Shown: positions 2,543 through 23,472, counted from the first letter of the stretch. The stretch: 64,000 nt of DNA from an uncultured Actinomycetes bacterium (GCA_964640085.1 CAZXFA010000005.1:46438-110437); one strand, 5' to 3'. A program made the numbers and translations. Notes: generated by a model from the sequence alone, not told the origin.

Positions 2543-2613
2543 GCTGGCACTATCCACCCCACGCGGCACGACCGCAAACCGCCTGCGCGCTGGGCGCTTC
2601 CTCGGCGCTCTGC

Positions 2614-3366: not shown

Positions 3367-3978
3367 ATGGATCTGAGCGCGTTCCTCCCGGTCGCCTTGG
3401 TCGTCGTGGTGACACCCGGACCAGACATGGCGCTCGTCGCCAGGAACACCCTGACCGGGGGTCGCGTCTGCGGCCTCGCGACCTCGGCCGGGACGTGCTC
3501 GGGCCTGCTCGTGCACGGATTCGCCGCGACGCTCGGCCTGTCCGCGTTGCTCCTAGCGTCCTCGCGCGCCTTCACCGTCGTCAGGCTCGCCGGGGCCGCG
3601 TACCTCGTGTTCCTGGGTCTGCGCACCCTGGTTCGCGCGGGCCGCGACGAGGCAGCGGAGGCCGGAGTCGCGGTCGCCCGTCCCTGGTCCGCCTATTGCC
3701 AGGGCGTGACGACGAACGTGCTCAACCCGAAGGTGGCCCTGTTCTTCGTTTCGCTGCTCCCGCAGTTCATCGAGGCCGGGGACGGGTTCGTCTGGAGGCT
3801 GGTCGCGCTCGCCGGCCTGTTCATCGCGATGGGCCTGGTGTGGCTGACCGTCTACACGCTGCTGCTGCACGCCGTCGGGAGCTTCCTCCGCCGCGGAGCC
3901 GTTCGACGATCGATCGAGCGCGTCACCGGCGCCCTGTTGGTCGGCCTGGGCGTTCGCTTGGCCGTCGAGCGCACCTGA
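3367..3978 (+). CDS. LysE/RhtB-family amino-acid exporter
   Basis: About 203 aa with MDLSAFLPVALVVVVTPGPDMALV and NPKVALFFVSLLPQF signatures typical of LysE translocators. The upstream part of track ORF 2932..3978 is non-coding-like. Confidence 0.85.
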   Translation: MDLSAFLPVALVVVVTPGPDMALVARNTLTGGRVCGLATSAGTCSGLLVHGFAATLGLSALLLASSRAFTVVRLAGAAYLVFLGLRTLVRAGRDEAAEAGVAVARPWSAYCQGVTTNVLNPKVALFFVSLLPQFIEAGDGFVWRLVALAGLFIAMGLVWLTVYTLLLHAVGSFLRRGAVRRSIERVTGALLVGLGVRLAVERT

Positions 3979-4018
3979 GGTCGAGGGAGGACGAGCGCGC
4001 CCGGGGAAGATGCAGCAG

Positions 4019-4369
4019 CTAGCCCTTCCTCATCTTCGCCCGGGCCTTGACGATCGTCCGGATCGTGAGCAGGAGGAAGACGGCGACGATCTGGCCGCCT
4101 AACACGATCCGGTTGAGGTCGACCGCGGGCCGCCAGGTCACCTCGTCTCCCCGGATGAGGAACGCCCCGACCGGTCGGGCGCTCATGCCGAACCCACTCC
4201 CGGACCCTCGGCCCTGTCCCCCCGGGCCCTCGCCACCCCCTCCGCCGGCGCCGCCTCGGACCCTGGCGACGGGGATCATCGTGGTGCCGTTCCTCTCGTA
4301 GGGCTCCCCGAAGACCCGTTTCACCGTGAGCGCATCGCGGGCTTGCGCGATGACGTCCTGGACCTCCAT
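4019..4369 (-). CDS. GerW/YtfJ-family protein with Gly-rich linker and C-terminal membrane anchor
   Basis: VKRVFGEPYERNGTTMIPVARV...RPVGAFLIRGDEVTWRPAVD pattern. GGAAGGAGGGAG Shine-Dalgarno before ATG 4369. Confidence 0.7.
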   Translation of the reverse strand: MEVQDVIAQARDALTVKRVFGEPYERNGTTMIPVARVRGGAGGGGGEGPGGQGRGSGSGFGMSARPVGAFLIRGDEVTWRPAVDLNRIVLGGQIVAVFLLLTIRTIVKARAKMRKG

Positions 4370-4463
4370 AGCTCCCTCCTTCCCCTCCCCCATCACAGCA
4401 CGTTCCGGTTCGAGGCGTGATAGGACGCCGGACCAGCGCCATCCGGGACGACGAACCGCCGCC

Positions 4464-4679
4464 TCAGCGATCCTCGCGCACGATCCGGACGACCACCTCG
4501 GCCGCGGGAGCCCGACCGGAGCGCTTCGAGACCAGGCGCCGGACGAGGAGGGCCACGATCCCCGCCGCGATCAGGGATCCGATCAGGGTCTTGGCGGAAC
4601 GGACCGGGCCGGGCAGGCGTTCCTCGAGCTCGCGGAGATCCAGCTCGAGCTGCCGCCGGACCTCGTCGATCTCGGTCAC
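4464..4679 (-). CDS. DUF3618-like small protein with C-terminal TM helix
   Basis: VTEIDEVRRQLELDLRELEERL coiled segment then LIGSLIAAGIVALLV. GTG start overlaps the upstream stop as GTGA. Alternative ATG at 4703. Confidence 0.6.
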   Translation of the reverse strand: MTEIDEVRRQLELDLRELEERLPGPVRSAKTLIGSLIAAGIVALLVRRLVSKRSGRAPAAEVVVRIVREDR

Positions 4680-8134: not shown

Positions 8135-9634
8135 CTACCGACCCTGCTGAACGAAGTGCGTCTCGTCCGGCTCGGTGCCCTCGGGCCAGCCGGGATAGGT
8201 GTCGCCCGGGTACTCCCAGGGCGAGCCGTAGCACGCATGGGTCTCCGGGGTGGGGCGCGCATCCGTGCGGGGGTTCCGGTCGAAGTCGAAGACGTGCTCG
8301 AAGTTGTGGCTCGTGGCGATCCGACCCGTCAGATAGGGCAGGCCCCAGTTGTCCTCGATGAACCGCAGCGGGGCGCAGAGGTCGGCCCGCGCCTCGTCCA
8401 CGTAGCCCCTCCCCGCGAAGGGCGAGACCACCAGGCACGGCACGCGGTACCCATAGCCGATGTGGTCGACGACCGGGGGCGCCACGTGGTCGTACAGGCC
8501 ACCCCACATGTCCCAGGCCACGAAGATCGCGGTGTGCTCCCACGCCTCGCTCTCCATCACCGCGTCAAGGATGCCCGCCAGCCACTGTTGGGCGAAGCAG
8601 GTGCTCTCCGGAGGGTGGCCCGAGAGCTCGAACCGGGGGGTGACCCAGGTGACGGCCGGGAGCCGCTCGGCGCGGATGTCCTCCACGATCCGGTCGACGG
8701 GCCGGATGTGCTCGGGGCGCCACAGGTCGGTGTGGAAGACACCGGAGATGGCGTTCAGGGCGTTCCAGAAGTAGCCGCTCTGGTAGGGGCTCGCCGAGTA
8801 GTAGGCCCAGCTCACACCGATGCTCTCGAGCTGCTGCGGGACGCTGAGGTAGTCGAAGCACGTGTCGTGCTTGGTCACGTTGCCCCGCTCGTCCATCACG
8901 AGGACGAACACGTTCTCACCGACCGCGTCGCAGCCCCAGCTCTTGAACGTGCCGTGCTCGTCCTTCCGAGTCTGGATGTTCTCCGGGTTGTCGAACACCC
9001 CACCGGACTGGCCGGCGACGAAGAAGAAATGGTTCGGGTACGAGGGCCCACCGACCGAGCAGAAGAAGTCGTCGCACAGGACGTAGTCCCGCGCCAGCTG
9101 CCAGTAGACGGGGGCCTTCTCCTGGTCGTGCATCGTGTACGCCCACGGATCGCCGAACTGCCCGATCGCGAACCCGTCGTACGTGCCCCCGTTCACGCTG
9201 TTCAGGAAGGCGGCCCGGTCGTGGGGCAGGTCGCCCGGGAGCCAGTGCGGCGAGGGCGCGAGCGGCACCTCGAGGCCGAACTTCACCCCGGTCGTGGAGC
9301 CCCGCGCACCGGGGAACGATCCGAAGAGGTTGTCGAAGCTCCGGTTCTCCGGCATCACGTAGAGGACGCGCTTGATCGGCCAGCGGGTGTCGGTGGCCAT
9401 CACCGATGCGCTCGCGCTGGGGGCGACCACGGAGCGCTTGCGTCCGCCACCCGTGCACGCGTACAGGGTGGCGCCGGCGATGGCGAACGCGGAGGTCCGG
9501 AGGAAGCGTCGTCGAGAGAAGAACGGGGAGTCGTCGTGGTCGGAGCGCTCGTACCCGGCTCCGGCCCCGTCGCGGGCAGCGGGAGCGTGCGGGGCCTGCA
9601 CGTTCCCGACTCTACCAAGGCGGTCCGAGGGCAC
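8135..9634 (-). CDS. Phosphoesterase-family protein (phospholipase C / acid phosphatase type), Tat-signal lipoprotein
   Basis: SRRRFLRTSAFAIAGATLYAC is a twin-arginine motif plus lipobox. VMPENRSFDNLFG and downstream conserved blocks are typical of the phosphoesterase family. Confidence 0.9.
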   Translation of the reverse strand: MPSDRLGRVGNVQAPHAPAARDGAGAGYERSDHDDSPFFSRRRFLRTSAFAIAGATLYACTGGGRKRSVVAPSASASVMATDTRWPIKRVLYVMPENRSFDNLFGSFPGARGSTTGVKFGLEVPLAPSPHWLPGDLPHDRAAFLNSVNGGTYDGFAIGQFGDPWAYTMHDQEKAPVYWQLARDYVLCDDFFCSVGGPSYPNHFFFVAGQSGGVFDNPENIQTRKDEHGTFKSWGCDAVGENVFVLVMDERGNVTKHDTCFDYLSVPQQLESIGVSWAYYSASPYQSGYFWNALNAISGVFHTDLWRPEHIRPVDRIVEDIRAERLPAVTWVTPRFELSGHPPESTCFAQQWLAGILDAVMESEAWEHTAIFVAWDMWGGLYDHVAPPVVDHIGYGYRVPCLVVSPFAGRGYVDEARADLCAPLRFIEDNWGLPYLTGRIATSHNFEHVFDFDRNPRTDARPTPETHACYGSPWEYPGDTYPGWPEGTEPDETHFVQQGR

Positions 9635-9651: not shown

Positions 9652-9942
9652 TCAGCTCGCGCGCTCGGTGCGGCGATCTGCGCGGCCGCGGCCGCCCGTG
9701 GTCTTCCCCCCGGAGCCGGGGCCGACGCCCGCGGGCGGCCGGATGGCGGGTACGAGGGCCCGAAGGAGCGCGTCCAAGCGCAGATCGATCGGCGGTCCGT
9801 CCGGCTGCACGGTGATCCGGGCGAGGTAGCCGCCCGACGTAGCGTCGGGTTCCGGCCCCAGGAGCAGCACCTCGACCGGGAACGCCTGTTCACCACTGCG
9901 AGCGGGCAGGCGCGTGACGTTCACGATCGGGCGGGCCATCAT
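9652..9942 (-). CDS. Hypothetical 96-aa protein downstream of ureC
   Basis: MMARPIVNVTRLPARSGEQAFPVEVLLLGPEPD... is the only protein-like part of the 672-aa track ORF 9652..11670. GAGGA Shine-Dalgarno 7 nt upstream. No family recognised. Confidence 0.5.
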   Translation of the reverse strand: MMARPIVNVTRLPARSGEQAFPVEVLLLGPEPDATSGGYLARITVQPDGPPIDLRLDALLRALVPAIRPPAGVGPGSGGKTTGGRGRADRRTERAS

Positions 9943-10088
9943 GGGTATCCTCGGACGCCGCGGGGCGGCCCTCGATAGGACGAAGGTCTCGTTCGGCCCC
10001 TTCCTCCGTTCGGTTCGAGGCGGACCCGCGGGGGGCCCGTGTTGAGGGGTCACCCCGGGAAAGCCGTGCGGTCCGGTCCTGCTCCCGG

Positions 10089-11753
10089 CTATCCGAGCAG
10101 GTAGCGCCGGCTGAGCGGCACGTCCGACACCGCATCCACGGCCAGTACCCGCCCGTCCAACGTCACCGTCCCGTCCGCGCGGTCGACCTCCACGGGGAGC
10201 ACCGACGTGTTGCGCAGCAGCGACGCGCGGTCGACCCGGCGGGCCCCCTGGACGGCGACGAAGCGCCGGGAGCTGCCCAGGCGGCGCCCGATCCCCGCCT
10301 CGAGCGCCGCACGGGAGACGAAGGTGATCGATAACGGGGCCGCCGCCCGACCCAGCGCGCCCCAGTGGGGGGCGTACCGGACCGGCTCGGCCGACTCGAC
10401 CGTCGCGTTCCCCGCCCCGAGCGCCCCCCAGGCGAAGTGCCCGGCCTTCAGGACCAGCTCCGGGTGCACGCCGAACCGGTTCGGCCTCCACAGCACGACG
10501 TCCGCCAGGCGACCCGGGACGAGCGAACCGACCTCGGCGGCGATCCCGTGGACCCGGGCCGGCTCCTCCGTGTACTTGGCCAGATATCGGAGGACGCGCG
10601 CGTTGTCCGCCTCCGGACGCTCCCCCGCCCACGCCTTCATCACGTGGGCGAGCTGCCAGGTGCGCCGGATCGTCTCGCCGATGCGGCCCATGCCCTGGGA
10701 GTCGCTGTTCACGATCGAGATCGCGCCCAGGTCGTGCAGCGGACCCTCGGCCGCCATCGTCGCCGGGTGGATCCGCTCCCGCGCAGCCTCGACGTCCTCG
10801 GGCACGGATGCCGAACCGCCGTGGACCGCCAGGATCATCTCCAGGTGCTCGGCCGCCGTGGCGCGCCCGAGCGGGATCGTCGGCGTGGTCGAGGAGCAGA
10901 CGACGTTCGGCTCCCGCACCAGGCCGATCAGGTCGGGCACGTGCCCGCCGCCGGCACCCTCGACGTGGTAGGCGTGGACGACCCGTCCGGCGATCGCCTC
11001 GACGGTATCCTCGAGCTCGCACGATTCGTTCAGGCCGTCCGTGTGCAGGCACACCGCGACGTCGTGGGCCTCGGCCAGCCGAAGCGTCGCGTCCACGATC
11101 TCCGGATACGCTCCCCAGTCCTCGTGGATCTTCAGCCCGCAGGCGCCGGCCCCGATCACGCGCTCGACCTGGCCGAGGACGTCGGTTCGGGCGCTCGCCT
11201 GCAGGCCGAGGTTCACGGGCAGGTCCTCGAAGGCCCGGTAGGTCTCGTCCATCGTGTACGGCGGTTCCTCGAACCCCGCGGTGATCAGCGTCGTGATGCC
11301 GGCGGAGAGGGCCACCGGCACCAGCCGCGGCGTGATGAGGTGCACATGGCTGTCCACGCCCCCCGCCGTCGCAATCAGCCCGTAGCCGTTGACCGGCCAC
11401 GTGTTCGGTCCGATCACGAGCTCCACGCCGTCTGCGATGTCGGGGCTGCCGGCACGGCCGACGCCGGCGATCCGTCCGTCCTTGATCCCGATGTTGGTCT
11501 TCCGCACGCCGAGGACGGGATCGATCACGACCACCCCGGCGATCAGCATGTCGAGCTCGCTCTCGACCGTGGCCCGGTCGAACTGCGCCATCCGGGAGCG
11601 GAAGTTCTTGGCGTATCCCCAGATCGGCTCGTCCCCGTAACCGACCTCGTCCTCCTCGATACGGACCCACAGGTCGGTGTCGCCCAGCCGGATCCGATCC
11701 CCGGTCGTCGGACCGAAGCGCTCGACGTACTCGTCGTGAGAGAGCTCAGCCAT
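10089..11753 (-). CDS. ureC: Urease alpha subunit, divergent
   Basis: [43 protein letters not shown] and [12 protein letters not shown] retain all metal-ligand positions. The start ATG overlaps the ureB end by 8 nt. Confidence 0.9.
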
Positions 11754-12000
11754 CGAGCCCCCCGTGGCCGCCCAGCCGCACGAGCACCACCTCCCGCTCC
11801 TCCCCCGGTATGAACCGGACCGACGCCCCGGCCGGCAGATCCAACCGGAACCCACGCGCGGCCTCGCGGTCGAACTCCAAACGCGGGTTCGTCCGCCAGA
11901 ACGGGTAGTGGGAGGAGACCCGGACGACGCGGTCCGAACCGTTCTGCACCCGCAGCCGGATCCGCTCGCGTCCCGCGACGAGCTCGATGCGCACGCTCAC
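11746..12000 (-). CDS. ureB: Urease beta subunit, N-terminally short (84 aa)
   Basis: [59 protein letters not shown] matches the UreB core. The GTG start overlaps the ureA stop (GTGA). Confidence 0.8.
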
Positions 12001-12299
12001 CCCCACGGCCTCCGGAGCACGACGAGGCGGCTCCCTTCGTCGAGCAGCACCTCGAGCCGGATCTCGTCCACCAGCTCGGCCACGCCCGGCATCAGCTGGT
12101 CCGGGCGAAGGGCGCGGCGACCGGCCTCGATCACCTCCTCGAAGGAGGCCCCGCCCCGAGCGGCCAGGTGCATCTCGTCGCACGCGAGCGCCGTGGCCTC
12201 GGGGGCGTTCAGCTTCAGACCGCGGTCCAGCACCCGCCGCGCGAGCTCGGCGGCCGCGAAGACCCGGAGGCGATCCTCCTCGGTCGGCCCAAGGTACAT
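11997..12299 (-). CDS. ureA: Urease gamma subunit
   Basis: [39 protein letters not shown]... matches the UreA pattern, 100 aa. The ATG lies 1 nt after the stop of the upstream deiminase gene. Confidence 0.85.
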
Positions 12300-12300
12300 C

Positions 12301-13332
12301 TCAGGCGGGCACCGGGGTCCCGGCGGGGACCTGCTGGGTGATGCAGTGCGGGCCACCGCCCCCGTAGGAGATGCAGTCGCCGGGGACCGGGACGATCTCG
12401 CGGTCGGGGAAGACCTTGGCGAGCCGCTCGAGCGCCTGCTCGTCCTCGGGACGCCCGGCGATCGGCGCGATCACCCCGCCGTTGGGCAGGTAGATGTTCA
12501 GGTACGCGATCCGTCCCGGGGGCGTCGTCTCGAAGGGGATCACCTCGAACGCGCGACCGCGCGCGTCGCGTGCCCGCGCCAGGCGCACGAGGTTGTCGTG
12601 CCCGCTCCCGTGGTCCGGGTCGGAGGGGTCCTCGGGAGCCAGGAGCACCACCGTCGCCGGCGCCACGTACTGGGCGATGCCATCGACGTGGCCATCGGTG
12701 TCCCGGTCGGTCGAGTGCCCGAGGCCCAGCCACACGACGGTCTCGAGGCCGAGGTACTCGCGGAGCCCCCGCTCGATCTGCTCCCGGGACATCGAGGGGT
12801 TCCGGTTCGGGTGCAGCAGGCACTGCTCCGTGGCGATCAGGGTGCCCTCGCCGTCCACGAAGAACGAACCGCCCTCGAGCACGAACGGGGCCTCGTAGCG
12901 GCGCACCCCGAGATGGGCGGCGACGTGTCGGGGGACCTCGGCATCCCTGTCGAAGGGAAGGAACTTCCCTCCCCACGAGTTGAACCGGAAGTGGACCAGC
13001 GCCACCTGGCCCGAGCCGTCGCGCACGAAGATCGGGCCGTTGTCCCGCATCCACGAGTCGTCGATCGGGAGCGGAAGGATCTCGATGCCCTCGCCGCAGT
13101 ACCGCCGGGCCTCCGCCTCCTGCTCGGGGTCGCAGACCATGGTCACGGGCTCGAAGGCGGCGATCGCGTTCGCCACGGCGGCGTAGTCGCGCTTCGCCTC
13201 GTCGAACCGGTCGGCCCAGAGGTCGCGGCGGGTCACGGTCGGCCACTCCATCAGACACGATGCATGCGGCTCCCACTCGGCCGGCATCCGGAACCCGTCC
13301 TCGCTGGGGGTGGGATAGCCTCGTTCCTCCAT
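12301..13332 (-). CDS. Agmatine deiminase / Porphyromonas-type peptidyl-arginine deiminase family enzyme
   Basis: MPAEWEPH, DDSWMRDNGPIF, GHVDG and C-terminal GGGGPHCITQQ (catalytic Cys motif) are typical of the guanidino-group deiminase family. Confidence 0.9.
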   Translation of the reverse strand: MEERGYPTPSEDGFRMPAEWEPHASCLMEWPTVTRRDLWADRFDEAKRDYAAVANAIAAFEPVTMVCDPEQEAEARRYCGEGIEILPLPIDDSWMRDNGPIFVRDGSGQVALVHFRFNSWGGKFLPFDRDAEVPRHVAAHLGVRRYEAPFVLEGGSFFVDGEGTLIATEQCLLHPNRNPSMSREQIERGLREYLGLETVVWLGLGHSTDRDTDGHVDGIAQYVAPATVVLLAPEDPSDPDHGSGHDNLVRLARARDARGRAFEVIPFETTPPGRIAYLNIYLPNGGVIAPIAGRPEDEQALERLAKVFPDREIVPVPGDCISYGGGGPHCITQQVPAGTPVPA

Positions 13333-13370
13333 GTCTCAGCTCCTTCCGGCTGCCGGACAACCATACGGCG

Positions 13371-14294
13371 TCATCTCACGGGCTCCGCGTCCATGAGGCG
13401 CGACGACCGCATCAGAGGATCCAGCCAGTCTCGTAATCCATCCCCCACGAGGTTGAACCCCAGCGCGGTGGACGCGAGGGTCAGCCCGGGGAACGCGGCG
13501 TACCACCACGCGTCCGGCTGATAGGGGAGCGATGCGAGGATCGTCGAGCCCCACTCAGGGGCGGGCGGCTGAGCCCCAAGCCCCAGGAACGATAGGCCGG
13601 CCGTGGAGAGCATGACGTAGCCAACGTCCATCGTCGCTTGGACGAAGAGGATGGGGGCAACGTTCGGGAGGAGGGTCCGGAACATGAGTCGAGTCCGGCT
13701 CGCCCCCATCGTCCGGGCGGCGAGGATGAACTCGCGCTCTCGTAGGCTCAGGACCTGTCCTCGGGCGATGCGCGCGTACCAGGGCCAGTACACCGTGGCG
13801 AGTGCCACCATCGTGGTCTGGAGGCTCGCGCCCAGCGTGAAGGTGATCGCCGCGGCGAGGATCAGGGCGGGGAACGCCAGGAACAGGTCCGTGAGGCGCA
13901 TCAGGATCTCGTCCACGATGCCGCCCGCGATCCCGGCCGCGAGCCCTACCACGATCCCCACAACGAGGGCGACCGCGAGGACGATCAAAGCAACCTCGAC
14001 GGCGATGTGGGTGCCAGCAAGGACGCGGGAGAAGAGGTCGCGTCCGAGGTGGTCTGTTCCCATGAGATGAGATGCCGAGGGCGCCTCGAGCCGGTCGGCC
14101 AGGTTCGGTGCGAGCGGATCGTACGGCGTGAACCGGATGTCCAGGAGGTCGGCGCCCAGGCCGACGACCGAGAGCACGAGCGTGATGGCGACGATGGTTC
14201 CGCCGAGGAGGTTCAGCGGGGAAGCTCGCAGGAAGCGTCCCACGAGCCGAATCCTGCGCCAGCGCGACATCCCAGCGACGTCCGGAGCTGCCAT
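13371..14294 (-). CDS. ABC transporter permease, DppC/OppC type
   Basis: HLMGTDHLGRDLFSR plus the permease EAA-loop region. The ATG overlaps the upstream permease stop (ATGA). The upstream part of track ORF 13371..14993 is not protein-like. Confidence 0.9.
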   Translation of the reverse strand: MAAPDVAGMSRWRRIRLVGRFLRASPLNLLGGTIVAITLVLSVVGLGADLLDIRFTPYDPLAPNLADRLEAPSASHLMGTDHLGRDLFSRVLAGTHIAVEVALIVLAVALVVGIVVGLAAGIAGGIVDEILMRLTDLFLAFPALILAAAITFTLGASLQTTMVALATVYWPWYARIARGQVLSLREREFILAARTMGASRTRLMFRTLLPNVAPILFVQATMDVGYVMLSTAGLSFLGLGAQPPAPEWGSTILASLPYQPDAWWYAAFPGLTLASTALGFNLVGDGLRDWLDPLMRSSRLMDAEPVR

Positions 14295-15301
14295 CACGCA
14301 AGCCTCACGCGCGGATCGAGATACGCGTACGCGAGATCTACGATCAGGTTGACCAGCACGTATCCGACCGTGACGACGATCGTCACCCCCATGATCGCGT
14401 TGTAGTCGGAGGATGAGATGGCCTCCGCCATGTACCGGCCCAAGCCAGGCCAGGCGAAGATCGACTCCACGAGCACCGTGCCTGAGAGGAGCAGTCCGAA
14501 CTCCAACCCGATGATCGTGGCGACAGGGAGCAGCGCGTTGCGAAGTGCATGCCGGCGGTAGATGCGCCAGGGGCTGAGGCCCTTCGCGCGGGCGCTCCTG
14601 ATGTAGTCCTGCCCGAGCACGTCGAGCATCGAGGTCCGCACGACCCGCGCCACCAAGCCCATCTCGGCGAGCGCCAGGGCGGTCACCGGCAGGATCAGGT
14701 GGGACACCGCCTGGACGAACAGATCGATTCTGCCGGCGAGCAAGGAATCGATCGTGTACAGGCCGGTCACGGTGGGAGGCGGAAGCACGCCTGTATCCAG
14801 CCGCCCGCCGAATGGGAGGATCCCGAGAGATGAGAAGAACGCGAACTGCAGAAGGAGCGCGACCCAGAAGTTCGGAAGCGATAGCCCACCGATGGCGACG
14901 AGCCTCCCGCCGACGTCGCTCGCGCGGCCCCGTCGGATCGCCGCCACCACTCCGATCACAAGTCCCAGCACCGACCCGACGATGAGCGAGCACAAGATGA
15001 GCTCCAGCGTCGCCGGGACGAAGGTGGCGAGGTCGCGCGTCACCGTTCGCCGGGTCACGAGCGACGTGCCGAGGTCACCCCGGGCCAACGCGCTCATGTA
15101 GCTCGAGTACTGCTCCCAGAGGGGACGGTCCAAGCCTCGCTCCGCGCGGATCTCCTCGACCGCTTCGCTGCTCGCCCGAGGACCAGCGAGTAGACGCGCG
15201 GGATCGGACGGCACCACCCGGGCCAGGAAGAAGGTCAGGACCGTGACGCCGAGGAGCACGAGGATCACGAAGGCGAGGCGTCGGATCAGGTACGCGGCCA
15301 T
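14294..15301 (-). CDS. ABC transporter permease, DppB/OppB type
   Basis: MAAYLIRRLAFVILVLLGVTVLTFFL N-terminus and SARAKGLSPWRIYRRHALRNA EAA motif. Confidence 0.9.
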   Translation of the reverse strand: MAAYLIRRLAFVILVLLGVTVLTFFLARVVPSDPARLLAGPRASSEAVEEIRAERGLDRPLWEQYSSYMSALARGDLGTSLVTRRTVTRDLATFVPATLELILCSLIVGSVLGLVIGVVAAIRRGRASDVGGRLVAIGGLSLPNFWVALLLQFAFFSSLGILPFGGRLDTGVLPPPTVTGLYTIDSLLAGRIDLFVQAVSHLILPVTALALAEMGLVARVVRTSMLDVLGQDYIRSARAKGLSPWRIYRRHALRNALLPVATIIGLEFGLLLSGTVLVESIFAWPGLGRYMAEAISSSDYNAIMGVTIVVTVGYVLVNLIVDLAYAYLDPRVRLA

Positions 15302-15328
15302 CGTGAGCCGAGCTTCGTGGCCGTGGAC

Positions 15329-16999
15329 CTAGCCCTCGGTCCTGTGCAGTTGGTACATGTCCAGCGTGAGAACGTAGACGGGGTTCAGGACCAACCCTCC
15401 GATATCGCTGCGCACATAGAGGTGCGTCGGTTCCTGTGCGACCGGGATCCAGGGAGGATCTTCGAGCGCGAGGATCTCCTGCAGACGGGACGACATCCGC
15501 ACGAGGTCCGCATCGATCGGCGCGTTCCACATGGCGTCGATCAACCCGTCCGCCTCCTCGTTCGAGTAGAGGCCCGCGTTGCCGCCCGCCGACCCCGCTG
15601 CGTCGGTGTGATAGAGCACCCAGGCCCAATCGAACGGGTGGTTGAAGTTGGGCCACCACGAGAAGAAGTACATGTTCGGCCGCTGCTCCGGAGGCGCGTC
15701 GCTGAAGAAGTCGGCGACGAACGCGCTGAAGGAACGTTCGACCAGGCGCAAGCTGATCCCGATCTCGGCGAGAGAGGCCTGAAGGAGCTCCCCGACGTCG
15801 TCCCCGAACCCCGTGAAGTACTCGTAGGTCAGCTCGGTCCCTTCGGACACGCCAGCAGCATCGAGCAGTTGCCTGGCCTTCTGGAGATCGTAGGCCGGTG
15901 CCTGGATGGAAGTGTCGGCGGTGGTCAGGAGATCCGGGAACACCCCATGAGGCTCGTCGAGGGTACCCTGCATCACGCCCTCGAGGTAGCCCTGCCGGTC
16001 GAAGGCATGGTTCAGAGCCAGCCTCGCCCGGGGGTCCGCCAGGGGTCCGTAGTCCCCGAGCGCGACGAACTCCATCACGAGCGTCGGGGCGTTCGTGACC
16101 ACGAAACGGGGGTCCTGACCGAGCTCGATCGTGTCGTCGGCGGTCCCGGGCCACACGATGTCGGCCTCGCCCTGCTCGAGGAGCTGTCGGCGTGTGCTGG
16201 ACTCGGGGATGGTCCGCGTGATGACACGGTCGAAGTGGTCGCCGGACCACCCTCCCCAGTAGGCGGGGAACCGCTCGAAGACGATCTCCTGCCCCGGATC
16301 GTTGCGCGTGACCATGTAGGGCCCGGTCCCGACCGGGTTCGCCTGCAGCCACTCGTGCCCCTGGTCGTTCGGACCCTCCGAGTGCTCCCTGGCCGCCGCA
16401 GGGCTCGGGATCCAGAACCCGTACTGGCCCGCCGCCTCGATGTCGAAGAACGGCCGCGGGTAGGGGAAGGAGAACCGCAAGGTCAGCGGGTCCTCCACCG
16501 TCATCTGCTGATCGGGGTCGTCGAACGCCCAGACGTAGCCGAGGCCACCCTTCTGAGTCGCGGTGCGGATGATCGCGTCCTTGACAGCGTTCGCATCGCA
16601 ATCCGTGCCGTCCTGGAACATCACACCCTGGCGGAGCCGAGCGGTCCACGCGGTCGTGTCGTCGTTCGGCTCGAGGCTCTCGGCGAGCCACGGGACCGTC
16701 TCGCTGGTGGACTCACCATCCAGCTTCACGAGCGTGTCGTAGACGGGCAGGAGCCCGAATGCCCACTCGACGTTCGTGGCCGGATCCAGGTTCTCCACGG
16801 CCGCGTCGACCGCGACGACGAGCGTGTCGGGGTCTCCGCTTGCTGCGGGTGGCGGCGCGCTCGTCTCCGTCGCCGGTCCCTCGGGTTCTCGGGTACATGC
16901 TGCGAGCGCCACCCCACCGAGACCCAGAGCGGCCCCGGCGAGGAAGCGGCGTCGAGTCAGCCGGCTCTGGAGCATCCAGGCGGCGTTACCGTGCCGCAT
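15329..16999 (-). CDS. ABC transporter substrate-binding lipoprotein, family 5 (peptide/nickel/opine type)
   Basis: RLTRRRFLAGAALGLGGVALAAC is a Tat-like signal plus lipobox. The body resembles a family-5 SBP. Start chosen at ATG 16999 (GGTGAGGTGGG upstream); alternatives are 17044 and 16975. Confidence 0.85.
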   Translation of the reverse strand: MRHGNAAWMLQSRLTRRRFLAGAALGLGGVALAACTREPEGPATETSAPPPAASGDPDTLVVAVDAAVENLDPATNVEWAFGLLPVYDTLVKLDGESTSETVPWLAESLEPNDDTTAWTARLRQGVMFQDGTDCDANAVKDAIIRTATQKGGLGYVWAFDDPDQQMTVEDPLTLRFSFPYPRPFFDIEAAGQYGFWIPSPAAAREHSEGPNDQGHEWLQANPVGTGPYMVTRNDPGQEIVFERFPAYWGGWSGDHFDRVITRTIPESSTRRQLLEQGEADIVWPGTADDTIELGQDPRFVVTNAPTLVMEFVALGDYGPLADPRARLALNHAFDRQGYLEGVMQGTLDEPHGVFPDLLTTADTSIQAPAYDLQKARQLLDAAGVSEGTELTYEYFTGFGDDVGELLQASLAEIGISLRLVERSFSAFVADFFSDAPPEQRPNMYFFSWWPNFNHPFDWAWVLYHTDAAGSAGGNAGLYSNEEADGLIDAMWNAPIDADLVRMSSRLQEILALEDPPWIPVAQEPTHLYVRSDIGGLVLNPVYVLTLDMYQLHRTEG

Positions 17000-17074
17000 A
17001 GCCCACCTCACCCCTCTGCAAGGATCGAGCACGGACATCCGCATATCGCATATCGCGCGGGACCCGAACGGCGT

Positions 17075-17097
17075 TTAGAATCCGGTTCGAACTCTAA
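17075..17097. promoter_or_regulatory. AT-rich imperfect palindrome between the tetR stop and the SBP start (candidate operator/promoter element)
   Basis: TTAGAATCCGGTTCGAACTCTAA has TTAGA/TCTAA outer arms and contains the GTTCGAAC palindrome. It is conspicuously AT-rich for this genome. Confidence 0.3.
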
Positions 17098-17116
17098 GGA
17101 GGAGGTCGATCGCCTG

Positions 17117-17755
17117 TCAAGGAACCGCGGCGGCGCGCTTCCGGCGAGCCTTCGGGACACGCACACCGAGCTCCCTGACCGCCGTCTCAAGGCAGGCATC
17201 GAGCAAACGGCGTGTGTCCATGCCGTCGATGCCGGCGACGACCTTGATCGCGAGCCCGTCCATCATCGCCCCGTACCGGTTGGCGAAGTCATGCGGGTCG
17301 ATCTCGGGGGAGAACTCCCCAGCTTCCTGACCGGATCGGATCAGGTCCACCAACGTCTCCACCCACCGTCGGTCGAGGTCCGCGTGGCCTCGTCCGATGC
17401 GTTCGTCGTGGGGAGACAGGGACCACACCTCGAGCCACAGGATCCACCCCGGATCGCTGGAACCGGTGGGAGCCGCGAGCTCGGTCAGGCAGACGAAGCG
17501 CTGGGAATAGGACGGGAGTCGCTCGAACTCCTCCTCGGCTCGGCGGAGCAGAAGATCCTCGCTCCGTCGGAGGAGCTCCATCAAGAGGTCGTCCTTGGAC
17601 TCGAAGTAGTAGAGGATATGCCCTGGGCTCATGCCGGCCCGCTCGGCGATGTCGCTCATCCTCGTGTTCGCGAGACCCCGCTCCACGATGACGTCCAGGG
17701 CCGCGTCCAGCACGCCCTCGCGGCGCTTCTGCCTTTCGCCTCGACGCTTGGCCAT
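17117..17755 (-). CDS. TetR/AcrR-family transcriptional regulator
   Basis: VLDAALDVIVERGLANTRMSDIAERAGMSPGHILYYFESKDDLL is an HTH signature. Start chosen at MAKRRGE; the track ORF extends to 17833. Confidence 0.9.
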   Translation of the reverse strand: MAKRRGERQKRREGVLDAALDVIVERGLANTRMSDIAERAGMSPGHILYYFESKDDLLMELLRRSEDLLLRRAEEEFERLPSYSQRFVCLTELAAPTGSSDPGWILWLEVWSLSPHDERIGRGHADLDRRWVETLVDLIRSGQEAGEFSPEIDPHDFANRYGAMMDGLAIKVVAGIDGMDTRRLLDACLETAVRELGVRVPKARRKRAAAVP

Positions 17756-17859: not shown

Positions 17860-18948
17860 ATGAACGTGCTCGAGGTCCGCGACCTGGCCGTGCGGTTCCG
17901 GGACGGCGCCAGGACGGTTCACGCCGTCAACGGGGTGTCCTTCGATCTGGCGGAGGGAGCGACCCTGGGTTTGGTCGGCGAATCCGGCTGCGGCAAGAGC
18001 GTCACGAGTCTCGCGGTGATGGGGTTGCTGCCCGCAGGAGGGTCGGTGGAACGGGGGGAGGTCCGTTTGGCTGGACGGGACCTGCTCACCCTCTCCGAGC
18101 GAGAGATGCGGTCCGTACGGGGCAAGGAGCTGGCGATGGTGTTCCAGGATCCGATGACCAGCCTCAACCCCGTCCTGAACATCGAGGAGCAGATCGTGGA
18201 GACGATCCTCGCACACGAGCGGCCCTCCAAGGTGGCCGCTCGGCAGCGCGCGATCCAGCTCCTCGGCGAGGTCGGCATCCCCGATCCAGGGGGAGCGCTC
18301 CGCCGGTTCCCGCACGAGTTCAGCGGCGGGATGCGCCAGAGGGTCATGATCGCGACAGCCCTGGCGCTCGATCCCAAGGTCCTGATCGCGGACGAGCCGA
18401 CGACCGCGCTCGACGTCACGATCCAGGCCCAGATCCTGGACCTCATGCGACGGCTCACGCGTGAGTCGGGGACCGCCAAGATCCTCATCACGCACGACCT
18501 CGGCGTCGTGGCGGGCGTCGCCGAAGAGGTGGCGGTGATGTATGCGGGGTTCATCGTGGAGCACGCGGCCGTCCGAGAGCTGTTCGCCTGGCCCCGCCAT
18601 CCCTACACGGTCGGGCTGCTCCGGTCGCTCCCCCGTCCCGATGTTCGTCTCGAGGCCCTCACACCGATCGAGGGCGCACCGCCGCATCAGCTCCAGCCTC
18701 CCCTCGGATGTCCGTTCGCGCCCCGCTGCGCCTGGCGCCTCGATGTCTGCCGGTCGCAGATGCCGCCCCTCGTCGATCAGGGCGCGGTGGACCGCACGGA
18801 GCGAGCCGAGGGTGCAGGACACCTCGTCGCATGCCACAACCCGGTCGATCGAGCCGAGGTGCGGGAAGGGCGGCCGCTGCGGGTGGGGTTCGTGCCGGCT
18901 CAGCCCCCGGCCTCGGACCCGGACGACGGGACGGGGTCATCTCGGTGA
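17860..18948 (+). CDS. ABC transporter ATP-binding protein, DppD/OppD type
   Basis: Walker A GESGCGKS, signature FSGGMRQR, Walker [12 protein letters not shown], and the oligopeptide-type C-terminal Cys motif. Confidence 0.9.
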
Positions 18949-20141
18949 GCCGGGCGCCCGATCCGGGGCACGAACCGTTTCGGGAGGCGGGGGGGGAGGT
19001 GGGGCCCCCGATCGTGCAGATCCGCGACCTGAAGGTGCACTTCCCGGTCACGAAAGGCGCGATCTTCCGCCGACGCGTCGGTACCGTCAGGGCGGTCGAC
19101 GGCGTGGACCTGACGATCAGGGCCAGGGAGGCGGTGGGACTCGTCGGGGAGTCCGGGAGCGGCAAGACGACGCTGGGGCGCACGATCCTGCAGATCTACG
19201 AGCCCGTCGGCGGCTGGATCCAGCTCGGCGACGCAGCGGTGTCGAGCCTGAGAGGGATCGAGCTCAGGCGGATGCGCCGCCGGATGCAGATGATCTTCCA
19301 GGACCCTTATTCATCGCTCCATCCACGGATGACGGTGGAGGGGATCGTGGCGGAGCCGCTCGAGATCCACCGGCTGGGGACCCGGGACGAACGGCGCGGC
19401 CGGGTGGCGGAGCTTCTCTCGCTAGTCGGTCTCTCACACGAGCACGCAGGTCGATACCCGCACCAGCTCAGTGGCGGTGAGCGGCAGCGCGTCGGGATCG
19501 CCAGAGCGCTGGCCCTGAACCCCGAGCTGGTGGTGGCGGACGAACCGGTCAGCTCCCTCGATGTCTCGATCCAGGCGCAGATCGTGAACCTGTTGAGGAG
19601 CCTTCAGGACGAGCTAGGCCTCGCGTACCTCTTCATCGCCCACGACCTCGCCGTCGTCCGTCAGATCGCTCACCGGGTGGGCGTGATGTACCTGGGCCGG
19701 ATCGTGGAGCTCGGCTCGACCGACCAGGTCTTCGTGGATCCCTCGCACCCGTACACCGTGGCGTTGCTGTCGGCGATCCCCGTCCCGGACCCCGCGGTCG
19801 AGGCGCTCCGGGAACGCATCGTCCTGCGGGGGGACCTACCCGACCCTGCCTCCCCGCCGTCGGGTTGTCGTTTCCGCACCCGCTGCTGGCTCCGGGAGCG
19901 ACTGGGCGGGCCTGAGGAGTGCGAGCGCGAGGATCCGAGGGCACAGGCGTTACACCCAGGCCATCTCGTCGCCTGCCACTTCGCCTCTGAGACCGCCGCC
20001 GAAGCCGAAGCCGTGCTGGGTCGATGGGCGGGGACGCACGAGGCGACGCGTGTGGAACCATCACCGCGCGCGGACGGGGTCGACCTGCTGGAACCGCCGA
20101 GCCCCGAGAGACACGGGGAGGAAGAGAGCCAACGTGAGTGA
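18945..20141 (+). CDS. ABC transporter ATP-binding protein, DppF/OppF type
   Basis: [17 protein letters not shown] and [11 protein letters not shown] motifs. The GTG start overlaps the upstream stop (GTGA). Confidence 0.9.
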
Positions 20142-20886
20142 GGGAGAGCTGACCGGCCAGGTGACGATCGTCACCGGGGCGGCTCAAGGGATCGGTCGGT
20201 GCATCGCCGAGTTCATGGCGAACGATGGCGCCGCGGTCTTGTTGGCCGACATCCAGCATGAGCGGGTCCAGAAGGAAGCTCTCGCTCTGCGTGATCTGGG
20301 GCTCCGTGCGGAGGCCGTCTCCGTCGACGTCCGGGACCCGGGCAGCACCCGAGAGATGGCCGAGGCGGCGCTCGATCTGTTCGGGAAGGTGGACGTGCTC
20401 GTCAACAACGCAGGCTTGGACGCGCCACCTGGCGCGCCTACCGAGATGACCGAGCAGCACTGGCACGACGTGATCGAGACGAACCTGAGTGGCGCATGGT
20501 GGTGCACGCGTGCGGTCCTGCCGGGGATGATGAACCGCCGCTCGGGCCGGGTCATCTTCATCAGCTCGGGGAGCGCCCGGATCGGGCAGGTGGATATCTC
20601 CCCCGCCTACAACGCGAGCAAGGCCGGGCTGATCGGGCTCACGGTCGGGCTCTCGGCGCATCTCGAGTCCCATGGGATCCTCGTGAACGCGATCACGCCT
20701 GGCCCCACCGGAACCGGCCAGCCGATGACCACCGAAGAGCGCGACGAGCACGAGCGGCGCTTCCCCCTCGGCATCGTCGGTCCGGAACCGGTCGCCCACG
20801 CCTGCCTGTACCTCGCCCGGGAGAGCGGTGACTGGGTGAGCGGCGCAGTCCTCAACGTGAGTGGAGGTTGGTGGAGAGGCCTGTAG
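20134..20886 (+). CDS. Short-chain dehydrogenase/reductase (classical SDR)
   Basis: [12 protein letters not shown] and YNASKAG motifs. GTG start with GGAGGAAGAG upstream, overlapping the preceding gene by 8 nt. Confidence 0.85.
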
Positions 20887-20914: not shown

Positions 20915-21814
20915 ATGGTCCATGCTCCGATGAGCTCCCCTTATGTGTGGCCAAGGGGCAGCCGGGCAGCGGTGGCCGTGACCTTCGATGTCGACGCGGA
21001 GAGCGGAGTCCTGGGCGAGACGCCGGAGGCCGCGAACCGGCTGAGCGTGATGACGCATCAGGCGTACGGGCCGCGAGCCGGGGTTCCGCGTCTGCTGGGG
21101 ATCTTGGAGCGGCTCGGGATCCGCGGCACGTTCTTCGTCCCCGGCCTGACCGCGGAGACACACCCCGACGCGATCCGAGCGGTCCGCGATTCGGGCCACG
21201 AGATCGCGCACCACGGGTACGCGCATGAACGGGTGACCCGGCTGAGCGAGGAGATGGAGGAGCGAGTCCTCCTGCGGGGCCTCGAAGCTCTCGATCGTGT
21301 CGTCGGCATCCGCCCGGCAGGATGGCGGGCGCCCATGTGGGAAACGAGCTACCGAACCCCCGAGATCCTCCTTCGACACGGGTTCCGCTGGGACTCGAGT
21401 CTGATGGACGCGGACCGGCCCTACGTCCTGGCGACCGGGGATATCGGCGGAAGGACGCTAATCGAGATCCCGATCCACTGGGGGCTCGACGATGGCGAGC
21501 AGTACGCATGGCTTCCCGACATCTGGGAAGCCGCGACGATCGAGAGCCCGGCAAAGGTGCTCGAGATGTGGACGCAGGAGTTCGAGGCCGTGCTCGCCGA
21601 GGGCGGGTGCCTGGTCCTGACGATCCACCCTTTCCTGTCTGGAAGGCCCTCGCGAGCCCGGGGACTGGAGCGCTTGCTGGAGCGGATCGTCGGCACCTCG
21701 GACGTCTGGGTCGCGACGGCGAGCGAGATCGCCGAGCACGTGTCCTCCCTGGACCTCCCAGCGGTCTCGCACGCCCAGCCGGTCGTCCGCGCCATCGAGG
21801 GACCGGGGCCATGA
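20915..21814 (+). CDS. Polysaccharide-deacetylase-fold (carbohydrate esterase 4-like) hydrolase
   Basis: AVAVTFDVDAES..., GTFFVPG and GHEIAHHGYAHE are NodB-homology-type motifs. GAGGAGG Shine-Dalgarno before ATG 20915. Confidence 0.8.
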   Translation: MVHAPMSSPYVWPRGSRAAVAVTFDVDAESGVLGETPEAANRLSVMTHQAYGPRAGVPRLLGILERLGIRGTFFVPGLTAETHPDAIRAVRDSGHEIAHHGYAHERVTRLSEEMEERVLLRGLEALDRVVGIRPAGWRAPMWETSYRTPEILLRHGFRWDSSLMDADRPYVLATGDIGGRTLIEIPIHWGLDDGEQYAWLPDIWEAATIESPAKVLEMWTQEFEAVLAEGGCLVLTIHPFLSGRPSRARGLERLLERIVGTSDVWVATASEIAEHVSSLDLPAVSHAQPVVRAIEGPGP

Positions 21815-23472
21815 GCGCCGGCCGGGGATCTCGTGCGGCGCGGCGGTCGCTGGTGCTGGTGGATGGCGACGTGTATACCGCGGACGAGACCGGCACCAGG
21901 GCGCGCGCCGTGGCGATGGGCGACGGACGGATCCTCGCCGTGGGGAACGACGAGGAGGTGGTGTCGGTAGTCCCCGACGCCCGGCGGATCGACGTCGGGG
22001 GGAGGACGATCGTGCCCGGCTTCATCGATGCACACAACCATTTCCTGGCCACCGGGGAGTCGCTCGGTTCGGTCGACGTCCGCTTCCCTCGCGTGGCCTC
22101 GGTCGACGATCTCGTGGAGGCGATCGAGGAAGCGGCGTCCGCCACCCCCGCCGACCGCTGGGTCACGGCATTCGGGTTCGACCACGCCAAGTACGAGCGG
22201 GAGCCGACCCGCTGGGATCTCGATCGGGCGACGACCGAGCATCCCGTGCTCGTCCACCATGTGTCCGGACACCACGCGCTCGCGAACTCCCGGGCGGTGG
22301 CCGAGCGGGCGGTGAACGAGGCAACGCCGGACCCACCCGGCGGTCGGCTCGTGCGTGATGCGGCCGGAAGGCCGACGGGGCTCTTCCTCGACGCCGCGAT
22401 GGCGCTCGTGCAGCCGATCGCCGTCGACATCGGCTCCCACGGCCCGAACTTCCACACCGCGTCGGCGCTGGAGGACCGGGTCGAGGCCGTGGAGCGAGCC
22501 GGACGCGCGTTCCTCGAGGCCGGGCTGGTCACCGTGTGCGACGCGCAGGTGACCAGCCGCGAGCTCGAGGCCTACCAGGTGGCGTGCCGGACCGGCAGGT
22601 TGCCGGTCCGCACCGTCTGCATGCCGCTCTCGCACCAGCTGGATGCGTTCGCGGAGATCGGGTTGCACGGATCGTTCGGGAACGATCGCCTCTCCATCGG
22701 GCCCATGAAGCTGTACGCGGACGGTTCGCTCATCGGCGGCACGGCCTGCTTCTCGGAACCCTACGGTGTGCGGGGTGAGTTCGAGGGCTCGCTCTACCAT
22801 CGGCCGGAGGAGTTGCAGGAGTTGATCCTCCGCGCGCACCGGCTCGGATGGCGCATCGGCGTGCACACGCAGGGGGACCTTGCGATGGGGCTGGTCATCG
22901 ACGCGTTCGAGGAAGCGCAGCTCCGGTGGCCTCGCGAGGATCCGAGGTTCCGGGTCGAGCACGCCGGCTACCCGACGTCGGACCAGATCGTCCGGCTGGC
23001 CGAGCTCGGCGTGGTGACCGTGAACCAGCCTCGATACCTGCACGACAGCGGCGACGAGTTCCTGGCCCGACTCGGCGACCGTGCCCACCGTCTGCAGCCG
23101 CTCAGGGAGGAGCTGGCGGCGGGCGTGAGGGTGGTCCTGAGCAGCGACTCGGACGTCGCGAGCTACCGGCCCCTCGACACGATCGCTTCCGCGGTGCGCC
23201 GCAGGACGATCGCCGATCGAGCGATCGGGGACGACCAGGCACTCACGGTCGAGGAGGCCATCCGGTGCCATACGTTGGCTGCAGCGTTCGCGATCGGCGC
23301 CGAAGAGCGTTTGGGCTCGCTCGAGCCCAGGAAGCTGGCCGATGTCGTCGTCCTCGACGGCGATCTCCTCGGAGCACCGCACGAGCGGATCGAGGATCTC
23401 CGCGTCTGGATGACGATCCTCGGAGGGGAGGTCGTCCACGACGTCACGAGGGGCGAAGGAGTGAGGGTCTGA
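21811..23472 (+). CDS. Amidohydrolase-3 (YtcJ-like) metal-dependent hydrolase
   Basis: IVPGFIDAHNHF metal-binding motif. About 553 aa with family-typical C-terminal LADVVVLDGDL. The ATG overlaps the upstream stop (ATGA). Confidence 0.85.
   Translation: MSAGRGSRAARRSLVLVDGDVYTADETGTRARAVAMGDGRILAVGNDEEVVSVVPDARRIDVGGRTIVPGFIDAHNHFLATGESLGSVDVRFPRVASVDDLVEAIEEAASATPADRWVTAFGFDHAKYEREPTRWDLDRATTEHPVLVHHVSGHHALANSRAVAERAVNEATPDPPGGRLVRDAAGRPTGLFLDAAMALVQPIAVDIGSHGPNFHTASALEDRVEAVERAGRAFLEAGLVTVCDAQVTSRELEAYQVACRTGRLPVRTVCMPLSHQLDAFAEIGLHGSFGNDRLSIGPMKLYADGSLIGGTACFSEPYGVRGEFEGSLYHRPEELQELILRAHRLGWRIGVHTQGDLAMGLVIDAFEEAQLRWPREDPRFRVEHAGYPTSDQIVRLAELGVVTVNQPRYLHDSGDEFLARLGDRAHRLQPLREELAAGVRVVLSSDSDVASYRPLDTIASAVRRRTIADRAIGDDQALTVEEAIRCHTLAAAFAIGAEERLGSLEPRKLADVVVLDGDLLGAPHERIEDLRVWMTILGGEVVHDVTRGEGVRV

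Follow-up and report, generated by a model that had tools for sequence, protein, structure and literature searches.

An agmatine-deiminase-like enzyme paired with an accessory-less urease-like heterotrimer in Actinomycetota: a candidate replacement for N-carbamoylputrescine amidohydrolase

Introduction

Which reaction does a urease-like enzyme catalyse when its three subunit genes directly follow the gene of a deiminase and no urease accessory gene is found nearby? The question is raised by a 64,000-nucleotide stretch of DNA (hereafter the window; ~70% G+C) from an uncultured Actinomycetes bacterium (GCA_964640085.1 CAZXFA010000005.1:46438-110437), in which an agmatine-deiminase-family enzyme, here termed AgD, is encoded immediately upstream of urease-like ureA, ureB and ureC. 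An initial annotation had placed these genes in a minus-strand string of ten, running from a TetR-family regulator to a Tat-signal phosphoesterase, and all ten were recovered by translation and Pfam searches. It had further suggested that the urease-like enzyme might act on the ureido product of the deiminase or on urea itself. Judged from the sequence patterns described below, the first option is the best supported: the urea loop of the enzyme is deleted, the agmatine site of AgD is kept, and N-carbamoylputrescine amidohydrolase (AguB) occupies the same slot in parallel loci. We propose, with our confidence evenly poised, that the urease-like enzyme could be a non-orthologous replacement for AguB, acting on the product of AgD. 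A search of the full-text literature, with most subscription journals outside its reach, returned no publication that describes either an AgD-ureABC module or a carbamoylputrescine hydrolase from the urease family, in line with the annotators' remark that they were not aware of this gene combination having been described.

AgD and ureABC form a conserved four-gene unit

The conserved unit consists of four genes, AgD-ureA-ureB-ureC, which lie in the window as follows.

12301-13332, minus strand: AgD, agmatine-deiminase-family (PAD_porph) enzyme of 343 amino acids (PF04371, 353.8 bits)
11997-12299, minus strand: UreA-like (urease gamma) subunit of 100 amino acids (PF00547, 92 bits)
11746-12000, minus strand: UreB-like (urease beta) subunit of 84 amino acids (PF00699, 99.8 bits, profile positions 10-86 of 98)
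10089-11753, minus strand: UreC-like (urease alpha) catalytic subunit of 554 amino acids (PF00449 and PF01979)

As read from the sequence, the AgD stop codon and the ureA ATG are separated by a spacer of 1 nucleotide, ureA and ureB overlap by GTGA, and ureB and ureC overlap by 8 nucleotides, ATGGCTGA.

Relatives of the module were collected with the window's UreC as query against one genome per GTDB species. They were sharply split, one set being 63-87% identical to the window's UreC and everything else at most 53% identical. The closer set comprises metagenome-assembled genomes (MAGs) of Actinomycetota, three MAGs that bear other labels (e.g. Chloroflexia) and Pseudonocardia acaciae, and 28 loci of this clade entered the survey. 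In P. acaciae DSM 45401, the gene of the clade member adjoins one for an APC permease (L010). The MAGs with the module on long contigs include MFD06298.bin.2.131, MFD10113.bin.2.63, MFD03044.bin.1.165 and MFD02159.bin.1.20. In a neighbour-joining tree on corrected p-distances, the clade of the window's UreC was monophyletic in 100 of 100 bootstraps and stood apart from the canonical ureases, which carry ureFGD alongside, so that no nesting among ordinary nickel ureases was seen. Its sister group, also recovered in 100 of 100 bootstraps, is a second accessory-less type from Streptomyces and Pseudonocardia. The family is abundant, with more than 120 clusters (90% identity): among 7865 matches at E <= 1e-100, the best 120 clusters each shared at least 78% identity with the window's UreC. 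The clade members among the matches listed are named 'urease subunit alpha' wherever the source names them, and annotation pipelines label the three genes as urease subunits alpha, beta and gamma.

AgD adjoins the clade ureABC in 13 of the 28 species-level loci, and in further metagenome contigs. The initial annotation had asked how often this adjacency is conserved; it recurs in many (soil) Actinomycetota, so that the window's genome is not unique in this respect, and it does so in four orders: AgD-A-B-C, A-B-AgD-C (with gaps of at most 20 nucleotides; L004, L006 and L007 in our numbering of loci), A-B-C-AgD, and AgD divergent from ureA. Furthermore, AgD-ureA-ureB-ureC stands alone in unrelated genomic contexts (L081-L084, L087/L088).

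Several observations on individual loci are added here. Two loci (L009 and L013, 8385-13236) carry the clade ureABC without AgD; a phosphotriesterase-family gene precedes the operon, and an amidase-signature gene (NF005686, 498 bits) follows it directly. In a Chloroflexia MAG (L027, 6500-10000), ureB and ureC are separated by ~3.5 kb that include an open reading frame (ORF) with a weak Peptidase_M1 match. L170 (6343-10730) encodes a UreC 55% identical to the window's with a similar loop deletion (TAGL-NENP), divergent from an orthologue of the YtcJ-like metal amidohydrolase (Amidohydro_3; hereafter AH3) that is also encoded in the window; a CN_hydrolase gene lies 3.6 kb from this AH3 and 5.6 kb from ureC, and the AH3 protein is labelled Planctomycetes at NCBI. 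Judging from this locus, the clade may extend beyond Actinomycetota. No Rfam element, guanidine riboswitches included, was found upstream of the module in the window or in seven module loci. An Rfam match to 5_ureB_sRNA in L087 (10157-10442, minus strand; 41.4 bits against a gathering threshold of 40) lies antisense inside ureC and was rejected, as it most likely reflects coding homology rather than an sRNA.

AgD resembles an agmatine-type deiminase

AgD has the pentein fold with its catalytic Cys, His and Asp, present in the motifs GGGGPHCITQQ, GHVD and RD. Its nearest solved relatives are plant and bacterial agmatine deiminases, the best being the Arabidopsis thaliana agmatine iminohydrolase (AIH) 1vkp (E 1.5e-70). 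AgD scored 323.3 bits against the aguA equivalog model TIGR03380 and thus fell below the cut-off of 381.8, partly because it lacks a gate loop of ~30 residues, as do the short bacterial enzymes. In plant AIH numbering, AgD keeps Asp89, Trp91, Asp94, Trp125, Asp218, Asp220, His224, Asp226, Gly361 and Cys366. When 20 AgD sequences were aligned, 18 of them module-linked, the agmatine-binding and catalytic residues were kept in 18-20 of the 20.

In the structure of the Medicago AIH, the terminal amine of agmatine is bound by Asp220, by the carbonyl of Ala360 and, via water, by Asp89, while Trp91 and Trp125 form the channel and Asp94, His224, Asp226 and Cys366 act on the guanidine group (PMC6447857). 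Since the residues of this site are conserved, agmatine or a close aminoalkyl-guanidine is favoured as substrate, and free guanidine and peptidyl-arginine are disfavoured. AgD, in other words, looks like a true agmatine-type enzyme, and the Arg-containing peptide that had been entertained as its substrate is not favoured. Homologues of AIH and of N-carbamoylputrescine amidohydrolase (NCPAH) with agmatine-derived substrates other than agmatine were demonstrated in 2026 (PMC13625781), and the R group of the substrate may therefore be another than that of agmatine.

The urea pocket of UreC is rebuilt throughout the clade

All three subunits carry their urease domains (PF00547, PF00699, and PF00449 with PF01979), and all three fell below the corresponding equivalog cut-offs: UreC scored 581 bits against TIGR01792 (cut-off 680), UreB 81.5 bits against TIGR00192 (cut-off 90.3) and UreA 78 bits against TIGR00193 (cut-off 82.3). 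UreC passed only the urease-alpha subfamily model NF009686, with 662 bits against a cut-off of 354.

UreC was aligned with solved ureases, jack bean urease among them, and with 46 canonical UreC sequences. The metal ligands are all kept, namely HxH, the Lys of KIHEDWG (the carbamylated position), two more His and the Asp, and so are the catalytic flap His, Asp and Arg. The urea-pocket loop GGGTGPA-GT-ATTCTPG, however, is absent from the clade: a deletion of 11 residues (GPADGTHATTC) is found in all 31 clade sequences, and by residue count the deleted segment includes Ala170 in S. pasteurii (SPU) numbering. The flap motif MVCHHL reads LAVHGG, and 31 positions that are invariant in the 46 canonical UreC sequences are replaced clade-wide. 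In canonical urease, two backbone carbonyls, those of Ala170 and Ala366, hold the NH2 group of urea that is bound to Ni(2) (PMC7433671). Loss of the Ala170 wall is as would be expected if this nitrogen bore a substituent, since the 11-residue deletion removes the wall of the Ala170 loop round the nitrogen bound to metal 2 and would thereby make room for an alkyl group.

The clade UreB, with 84 amino acids, is shortened at both ends relative to the Pfam model. Canonical UreB is involved in UreD docking and in access to the active site, and its shortening in the clade may be connected with a maturation that needs no accessory proteins.

Urease accessory genes are not linked to the module

UreF, UreG and UreD were not found by tblastn with Streptomyces queries in the 64-kb window or in any clade locus (~35 related loci), whereas the same search placed them beside almost every canonical (Streptomyces) locus. 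Pfam scans of the other large ORFs of the window revealed no accessory protein or urea transporter; UreE, HupE/UreJ and NiCoT were covered by no dedicated search. The annotation's claim that the 64 kb hold no accessory, nickel-transporter or urea-transporter gene thus holds for UreF, UreG and UreD by tblastn and for urea transporters by Pfam. It was not upheld for nickel transporters, as the importer encoded upstream of AgD has NikABCDE architecture and its permeases find nickel permeases as their top matches, although below cut-off. As no UreD, UreF or UreG is linked in any member of the clade, the metal centre would probably self-assemble like those of other enzymes of the amidohydrolase superfamily. 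A precedent missing from the earlier account is Bacillus subtilis, which has an active nickel urease without accessory proteins.

AguB and the urease-like operon alternate beside AgD

A survey of AgD relatives yielded 91 non-redundant loci, each of which was searched for AguB, UreABC and AH3. A CN_hydrolase gene of the AguB type lies within 3 kb of AgD in 34 of the 91 loci, and a urease-like operon in 15-16, the uncertainty stemming from a split UreC match in L035. None of the 91 has both within this distance (Fisher p ~7e-4). Linkage to urease-like genes prevails among AgDs with at least 54% identity to the window's, and linkage to AguB is frequent among those with 52% or less. AguB had no match in the window or at any clade locus.

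The same alternation is seen within one type of operon. L108 and L171 hold operons of the order AH3-AgD-AguB(-like)-SBP5-permease-permease-ATPase, SBP5 being a family-5 substrate-binding protein, and in the window, L085 and L008 the same AH3 is combined with AgD-UreABC. These parallel operons, which appear to put AguB into the slot of UreABC, are to us the most telling evidence for a replacement. The long operon of L171/L172 encodes an unknown protein of 377 residues, an Aminotran_3 protein, AH3, AgD, an AguB-like protein, SBP5, two permeases, two ATPases and a second AH3; putrescine as the product fits with the class-III aminotransferase encoded there.

None of the usual partners of an agmatine deiminase adjoins AgD in the window, as the initial annotation had noted: AguB is without a match, and the lone arcC mentioned there, 44 kb away, is indeed a carbamate kinase gene. 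It occupies residues 186-496 of the ORF at 56520-58016 on the plus strand (NF009007, 388 bits), and its true start probably lies well inside this ORF. The scanned ORFs of the window included no gene for an ornithine or a putrescine carbamoyltransferase.

A third accessory-less urease-like type was found beside AgD in L120 (3308-8100) and L122 (1083-7077). Its UreC is 45-47% identical to the window's, has the rebuilt loop VQEFGPFWGVG, and reads HEDTG in place of HEDWG. In L120, a carbamate kinase gene (447 bits) follows AgD; the order in L122 is UreABC, TetR, APC permease, AgD.

The importer and the divergent operon are additions of the window's lineage

The module is embedded in the window among the following further genes.

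17117-17755, minus strand: TetR-family regulator with a BetI-type C-terminal domain (PF00440 and PF13977)
17091-17120, minus strand: promoter-like site TTGACA-18-TAGAGT, between the TetR stop codon and the start of the binding-protein gene (10 of 12 matches, a consensus match only)
15329-17044, minus strand: family-5 substrate-binding lipoprotein, SBP5 (PF00496, 248.5 bits; Tat-like RR motif and lipobox)
14294-15301, minus strand: DppB/NikB-type permease (PF00528 and PF19300; top NCBIfam match the Opp2B nickel permease, 288.8 bits against a cut-off of 350)
13371-14297, minus strand: DppC/NikC-type permease (PF00528; Opp2C, 279.3 bits against a cut-off of 300; start GTG 14297 or ATG 14294)
9652-9942, minus strand: ORF of 96 amino acids with coding-like codon usage (no Pfam or NCBIfam family)
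8135-9634, minus strand: Tat-signal phosphoesterase (PF04185)
17860-18948, plus strand: DppD-type ABC ATPase, divergent from TetR (from translation; an ABC_tran and oligo_HPY orthologue lies at the same place in L085)
18999-20141, plus strand, start approximate: DppF-type ABC ATPase (from translation; orthologue in L085)
20134-20886, plus strand, start approximate: short-chain dehydrogenase, SDR (PF00106, 175 bits)
20948-21814, plus strand: CE4 polysaccharide-deacetylase-family protein (63% identical to the Polysacc_deac_1 protein of L085)
21847-23472, plus strand: AH3, YtcJ-like metal amidohydrolase (Amidohydro_3; PF07969, 316.6 bits)

The importer ATPases, which the initial annotation had not listed, thus head a divergent operon (17860-20141) that continues with SDR, CE4 and AH3. 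Of the junctions quoted there, those between AgD and ureA, ureA and ureB, and ureB and ureC proved exact; the two permease genes meet in GTGATG, read either as a GTGA overlap or as a 1-nucleotide TGATG overlap, and not in ATGA, a minor error.

The ABC importer is a lineage-specific addition and not a conserved part of the module. The set of TetR, SBP5 and permeases upstream of the module is confined to the window and L085/L086, whose UreC is 86% identical to the window's and which hold an orthologous TetR gene (213 amino acids) at the same position; no such importer is present at L035, L081-L084 or L087/L088. In its available part, L085 also shares the divergent operon (Polysacc_deac_1 63% and Amidohydro_3 65% identical). 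The genes 3' of ureC vary between relatives, and the 96-residue ORF and the phosphoesterase are therefore regarded as neighbours only. The former was rejected as a part of the module on finding no tblastn match in any related locus, the latter because the downstream genes of L085/L086 differ; an unrelated 55-residue ORF occupies the position of the 96-residue ORF in these two loci.

In its composition of SBP5, two permeases and two ATPases, the importer resembles both NikABCDE and the Opp/Dpp systems, and the top NCBIfam matches of its permeases are nickel permeases. It differs in that all its scores against the NikA, NikB and NikC equivalog models are below cut-off, in its regulator, which is TetR/BetI-like and not NikR, and in not being conserved with the module. 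SBP5 reached no NCBIfam cut-off (GsiB 117.6, NikA 115.6 bits), is no nearer to NikA than to GsiB or DppA, and has as its top PDB match the uncharacterised binding protein 5u4o. A role in metal uptake appears less likely given that comparable importers stand beside the metal-free AguB in L108 and L171. On these grounds, together with the importer's not being kept with the module, we disfavour a nickel importer, a reading that survives only within the urease alternative discussed below. A search for a TetR operator gave one weak palindrome, which was not used.

AH3 is a recurrent partner of AgD and of the urease-like genes alike. Its top matches are limited to 'predicted amidohydrolase YtcJ' and the uncharacterised structure 3ICJ. 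The window's protein is 62% identical to the copy beside AgD in L008 and 62% to that beside ureC in L017; it is 60%, 64% and 62% identical to the copies in the AH3-AgD-AguB(-like) operons of L108, L171 and L172, respectively, and 68% identical to the copy in L170, which adjoins the UreC with the same deletion. More distant copies occur in L009, L013, L016, L024 and L025. Plausibly, AH3 might free agmatine from an amide conjugate that the peptide-type importer brings into the cell. The nearest NCBIfam model of the CE4 protein is the PuuE allantoinase N-terminal domain, a weak match below cut-off (TIGR03212, 94.8 bits against 424.6).

An MttB-family (non-pyrrolysine methyltransferase-like) gene lies 3 kb past AH3 in the window (26296-27800, minus strand), and another heads the AH3-AgD-AguB operon of L108 (108-1610). 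With only 26% identity and different positions, a link between the two may be chance and is treated as coincidence for now.

Discussion

From gene content, conserved linkage, residue patterns and the complementary distribution of AguB, we infer substrates, products, metal and importer role as follows. AgD would convert agmatine, or a close aminoalkyl-guanidine, into the corresponding N-carbamoyl amine (N-carbamoylputrescine) and NH3. The urease-like heterotrimer would then hydrolyse this N-substituted urea, and not urea, to putrescine, CO2 and a second NH3, using the usual carbamylated-lysine binuclear metal centre, possibly with a metal other than nickel. In the lineage of the window, the module stands behind a TetR-controlled importer of the Opp/Dpp type for which the divergent operon would supply the ATPases along with SDR, CE4 and AH3, and importer and enzymes may together take in the guanidino substrate and free it from a conjugate.

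Several findings weigh against this proposal. Within 10 kb, AgD is missing from about one half of the clade loci (L009, L013, L015, L017-L022, L024-L027), and some AgDs of the window's subfamily occur without ureABC (L089, L090, L093, L095). In the super-locus L172, from an Acidimicrobiia MAG, an AguB-like gene coexists with a urease-like operon of the other accessory-less type: on the minus strand (697-4531), genes for an amidase-signature protein, a fused urease gamma/beta subunit and a Streptomyces-type urease alpha subunit are directly divergent from the AH3-AgD-AguB-like-ABC operon. The mutual exclusion of AguB and the urease-like operon is therefore limited to immediate neighbours. Neither AgD nor the AguB-like proteins encoded in the parallel operons reach the NCBIfam equivalog cut-offs, so that the true substrate may be an analogue of agmatine. 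UreC retains all residues used for the hydrolysis of urea, and some activity on urea may thus persist. Finally, the searches for ureDFG and aguB span contig windows and not whole genomes.

One alternative retains the scheme and changes only the R group. The substrates would be a different ureido or guanidino metabolite, for instance a carbamoylated polyamine precursor, as in the carbamoyl forms of N1-aminopropylagmatine and of diagmatine, or a conjugate on which AH3 acts, and agmatine would not be the physiological substrate. The sub-cut-off equivalog scores of AgD and of the AguB-like proteins of the parallel operons fit such a metabolite, as do the alternative substrates demonstrated for AIH and NCPAH homologues (PMC13625781) and the presence at the same locus of AH3, of the CE4/PuuE-like protein and of an importer of the peptide type. 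The agmatine-binding residues of AgD are intact, however, and speY and speE, of spermidine and homospermidine synthesis, were not seen in Pfam scans of the window's larger ORFs. We consider this variant unlikely.

A second alternative, to which we likewise give only a small share of our confidence, is that of a genuine urease acting on urea, either self-maturing or with ureDFG encoded elsewhere, that is co-expressed with AgD for nitrogen scavenging or the production of alkali; the Nik-like importer could then supply nickel. The nickel ligands and catalytic residues are indeed all conserved, NF009686 is passed (662 bits against 354), the permeases have nickel permeases as their (sub-cut-off) top matches, B. 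subtilis provides the precedent of an active urease lacking accessory proteins, and related super-loci (L171) contain ureohydrolase (Arginase-family) genes, which would yield urea. Against this, the loop with the Ala170 carbonyl is deleted clade-wide and the flap altered, all three subunits fail their equivalog models, AgD itself makes no urea, and it is interleaved between ureB and ureC in three lineages. Moreover, most module loci lack the importer, and a comparable importer accompanies the metal-free AguB in L108 and L171.

That AgD acts on free guanidine or another small guanidino compound to give urea, which the urease-like enzyme would split in a guanidine-to-ammonia pathway, is highly improbable: its chemistry is simple, with each enzyme keeping its family reaction, and the module is often transporter-less, as for a small diffusible or internal substrate, but AgD retains its Trp channel and the residues for the distal amine of agmatine, UreC has a remodelled and not a conserved urea pocket, no guanidine riboswitch or other Rfam element lies upstream in the window and the seven module loci, and the full-text literature search found no paper on a 'guanidine deiminase'.

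Set beside known systems, the unit is similar in logic to the AguA-AguB pathway and in fold to canonical urease. It fails defining tests of both families, for urease the pocket loop, the equivalog models and the linked accessory genes, and for AguB the fold. With the AguA-AguB pathway of Pseudomonas aeruginosa and plants it shares an AguA-type enzyme with an intact agmatine site and a hydrolase gene directly after it. The second enzyme differs: AguB is a Cys hydrolase of the nitrilase fold, whereas the window's enzyme has the urease fold of the amidohydrolase superfamily with a binuclear metal site. As the UreABC-like enzyme does not have the nitrilase-superfamily fold, our claim concerns an AguB-like role and not identity with AguB. 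With canonical UreABC of Klebsiella aerogenes and Sporosarcina pasteurii, which is accompanied by UreDEFG, the window's enzyme shares its make-up of three subunits, the Pfam domains of each, ~45-50% of the residues of the alpha subunit, the metal ligands, the carbamylated Lys position, and the flap His, Asp and Arg. It differs from it in the lack of linked ureD, ureF and ureG, the deletion of the Ala170 loop, the altered flap, the trimmed UreB, the failed equivalog models and the partnership with AgD.

The iron urease UreA2B2 of Helicobacter mustelae is a homologue that needs no UreDEFG for its maturation. It has two subunits, in contrast to the three of the window's enzyme, and is a genuine urease; its structure 3qga matched the window's UreC with 467 bits, no closer than ordinary ureases. 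The 'second urease' type of Streptomyces and Pseudonocardia (L028, L030, L032, L036, L063, and L172) has in common with the window's enzyme the lack of accessory genes, a rebuilt Ala170 loop and a link to a YtcJ-like protein; L172 lies outside the tree and was assigned to this type by 56% identity and the loop motif. The differences lie in the loop, GMGIGGVWDVG, in a one-residue deletion in EGAGGGH, and in the partners, which are AH3 and an MFS transporter or an amidase, and not AgD. In the five loci from Streptomyces and Pseudonocardia acaciae (L028, L030, L032, L036, L063), ureC is in every case directly followed by a YtcJ-like amidohydrolase gene, and in L030, L032 and L036 next by a gene for 455-475 amino acids, called MFS from sequence only. 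We know of no characterisation of this type.

Taken together, and at somewhat less than even confidence, these data may describe a large, soil-abundant clade of the urease fold that is independent of UreDEFG, possibly nickel-free, takes an N-alkylurea (N-carbamoylputrescine or a relative) as substrate, replaces AguB, and would be the first member of the urease family with a physiological substrate other than urea. If so, the Streptomyces 'second urease' and the type found in L120 and L122 would be further ureidohydrolases, and the 'second urease' clusters without accessory genes that have long been noticed in actinomycetes would have an explanation that can be tested. The urease fold would be extended to N-substituted ureas, the agmatine deiminase route would gain a third way to its completion, and a natural carbamylated-lysine binuclear centre of the urease type would be seen to assemble without the UreDFG GTPase machinery. 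Soil nitrogen-cycling surveys score ureC as ureolytic potential; if the clade does not hydrolyse urea, such ureC-based counts would be inflated for Actinomycetota.

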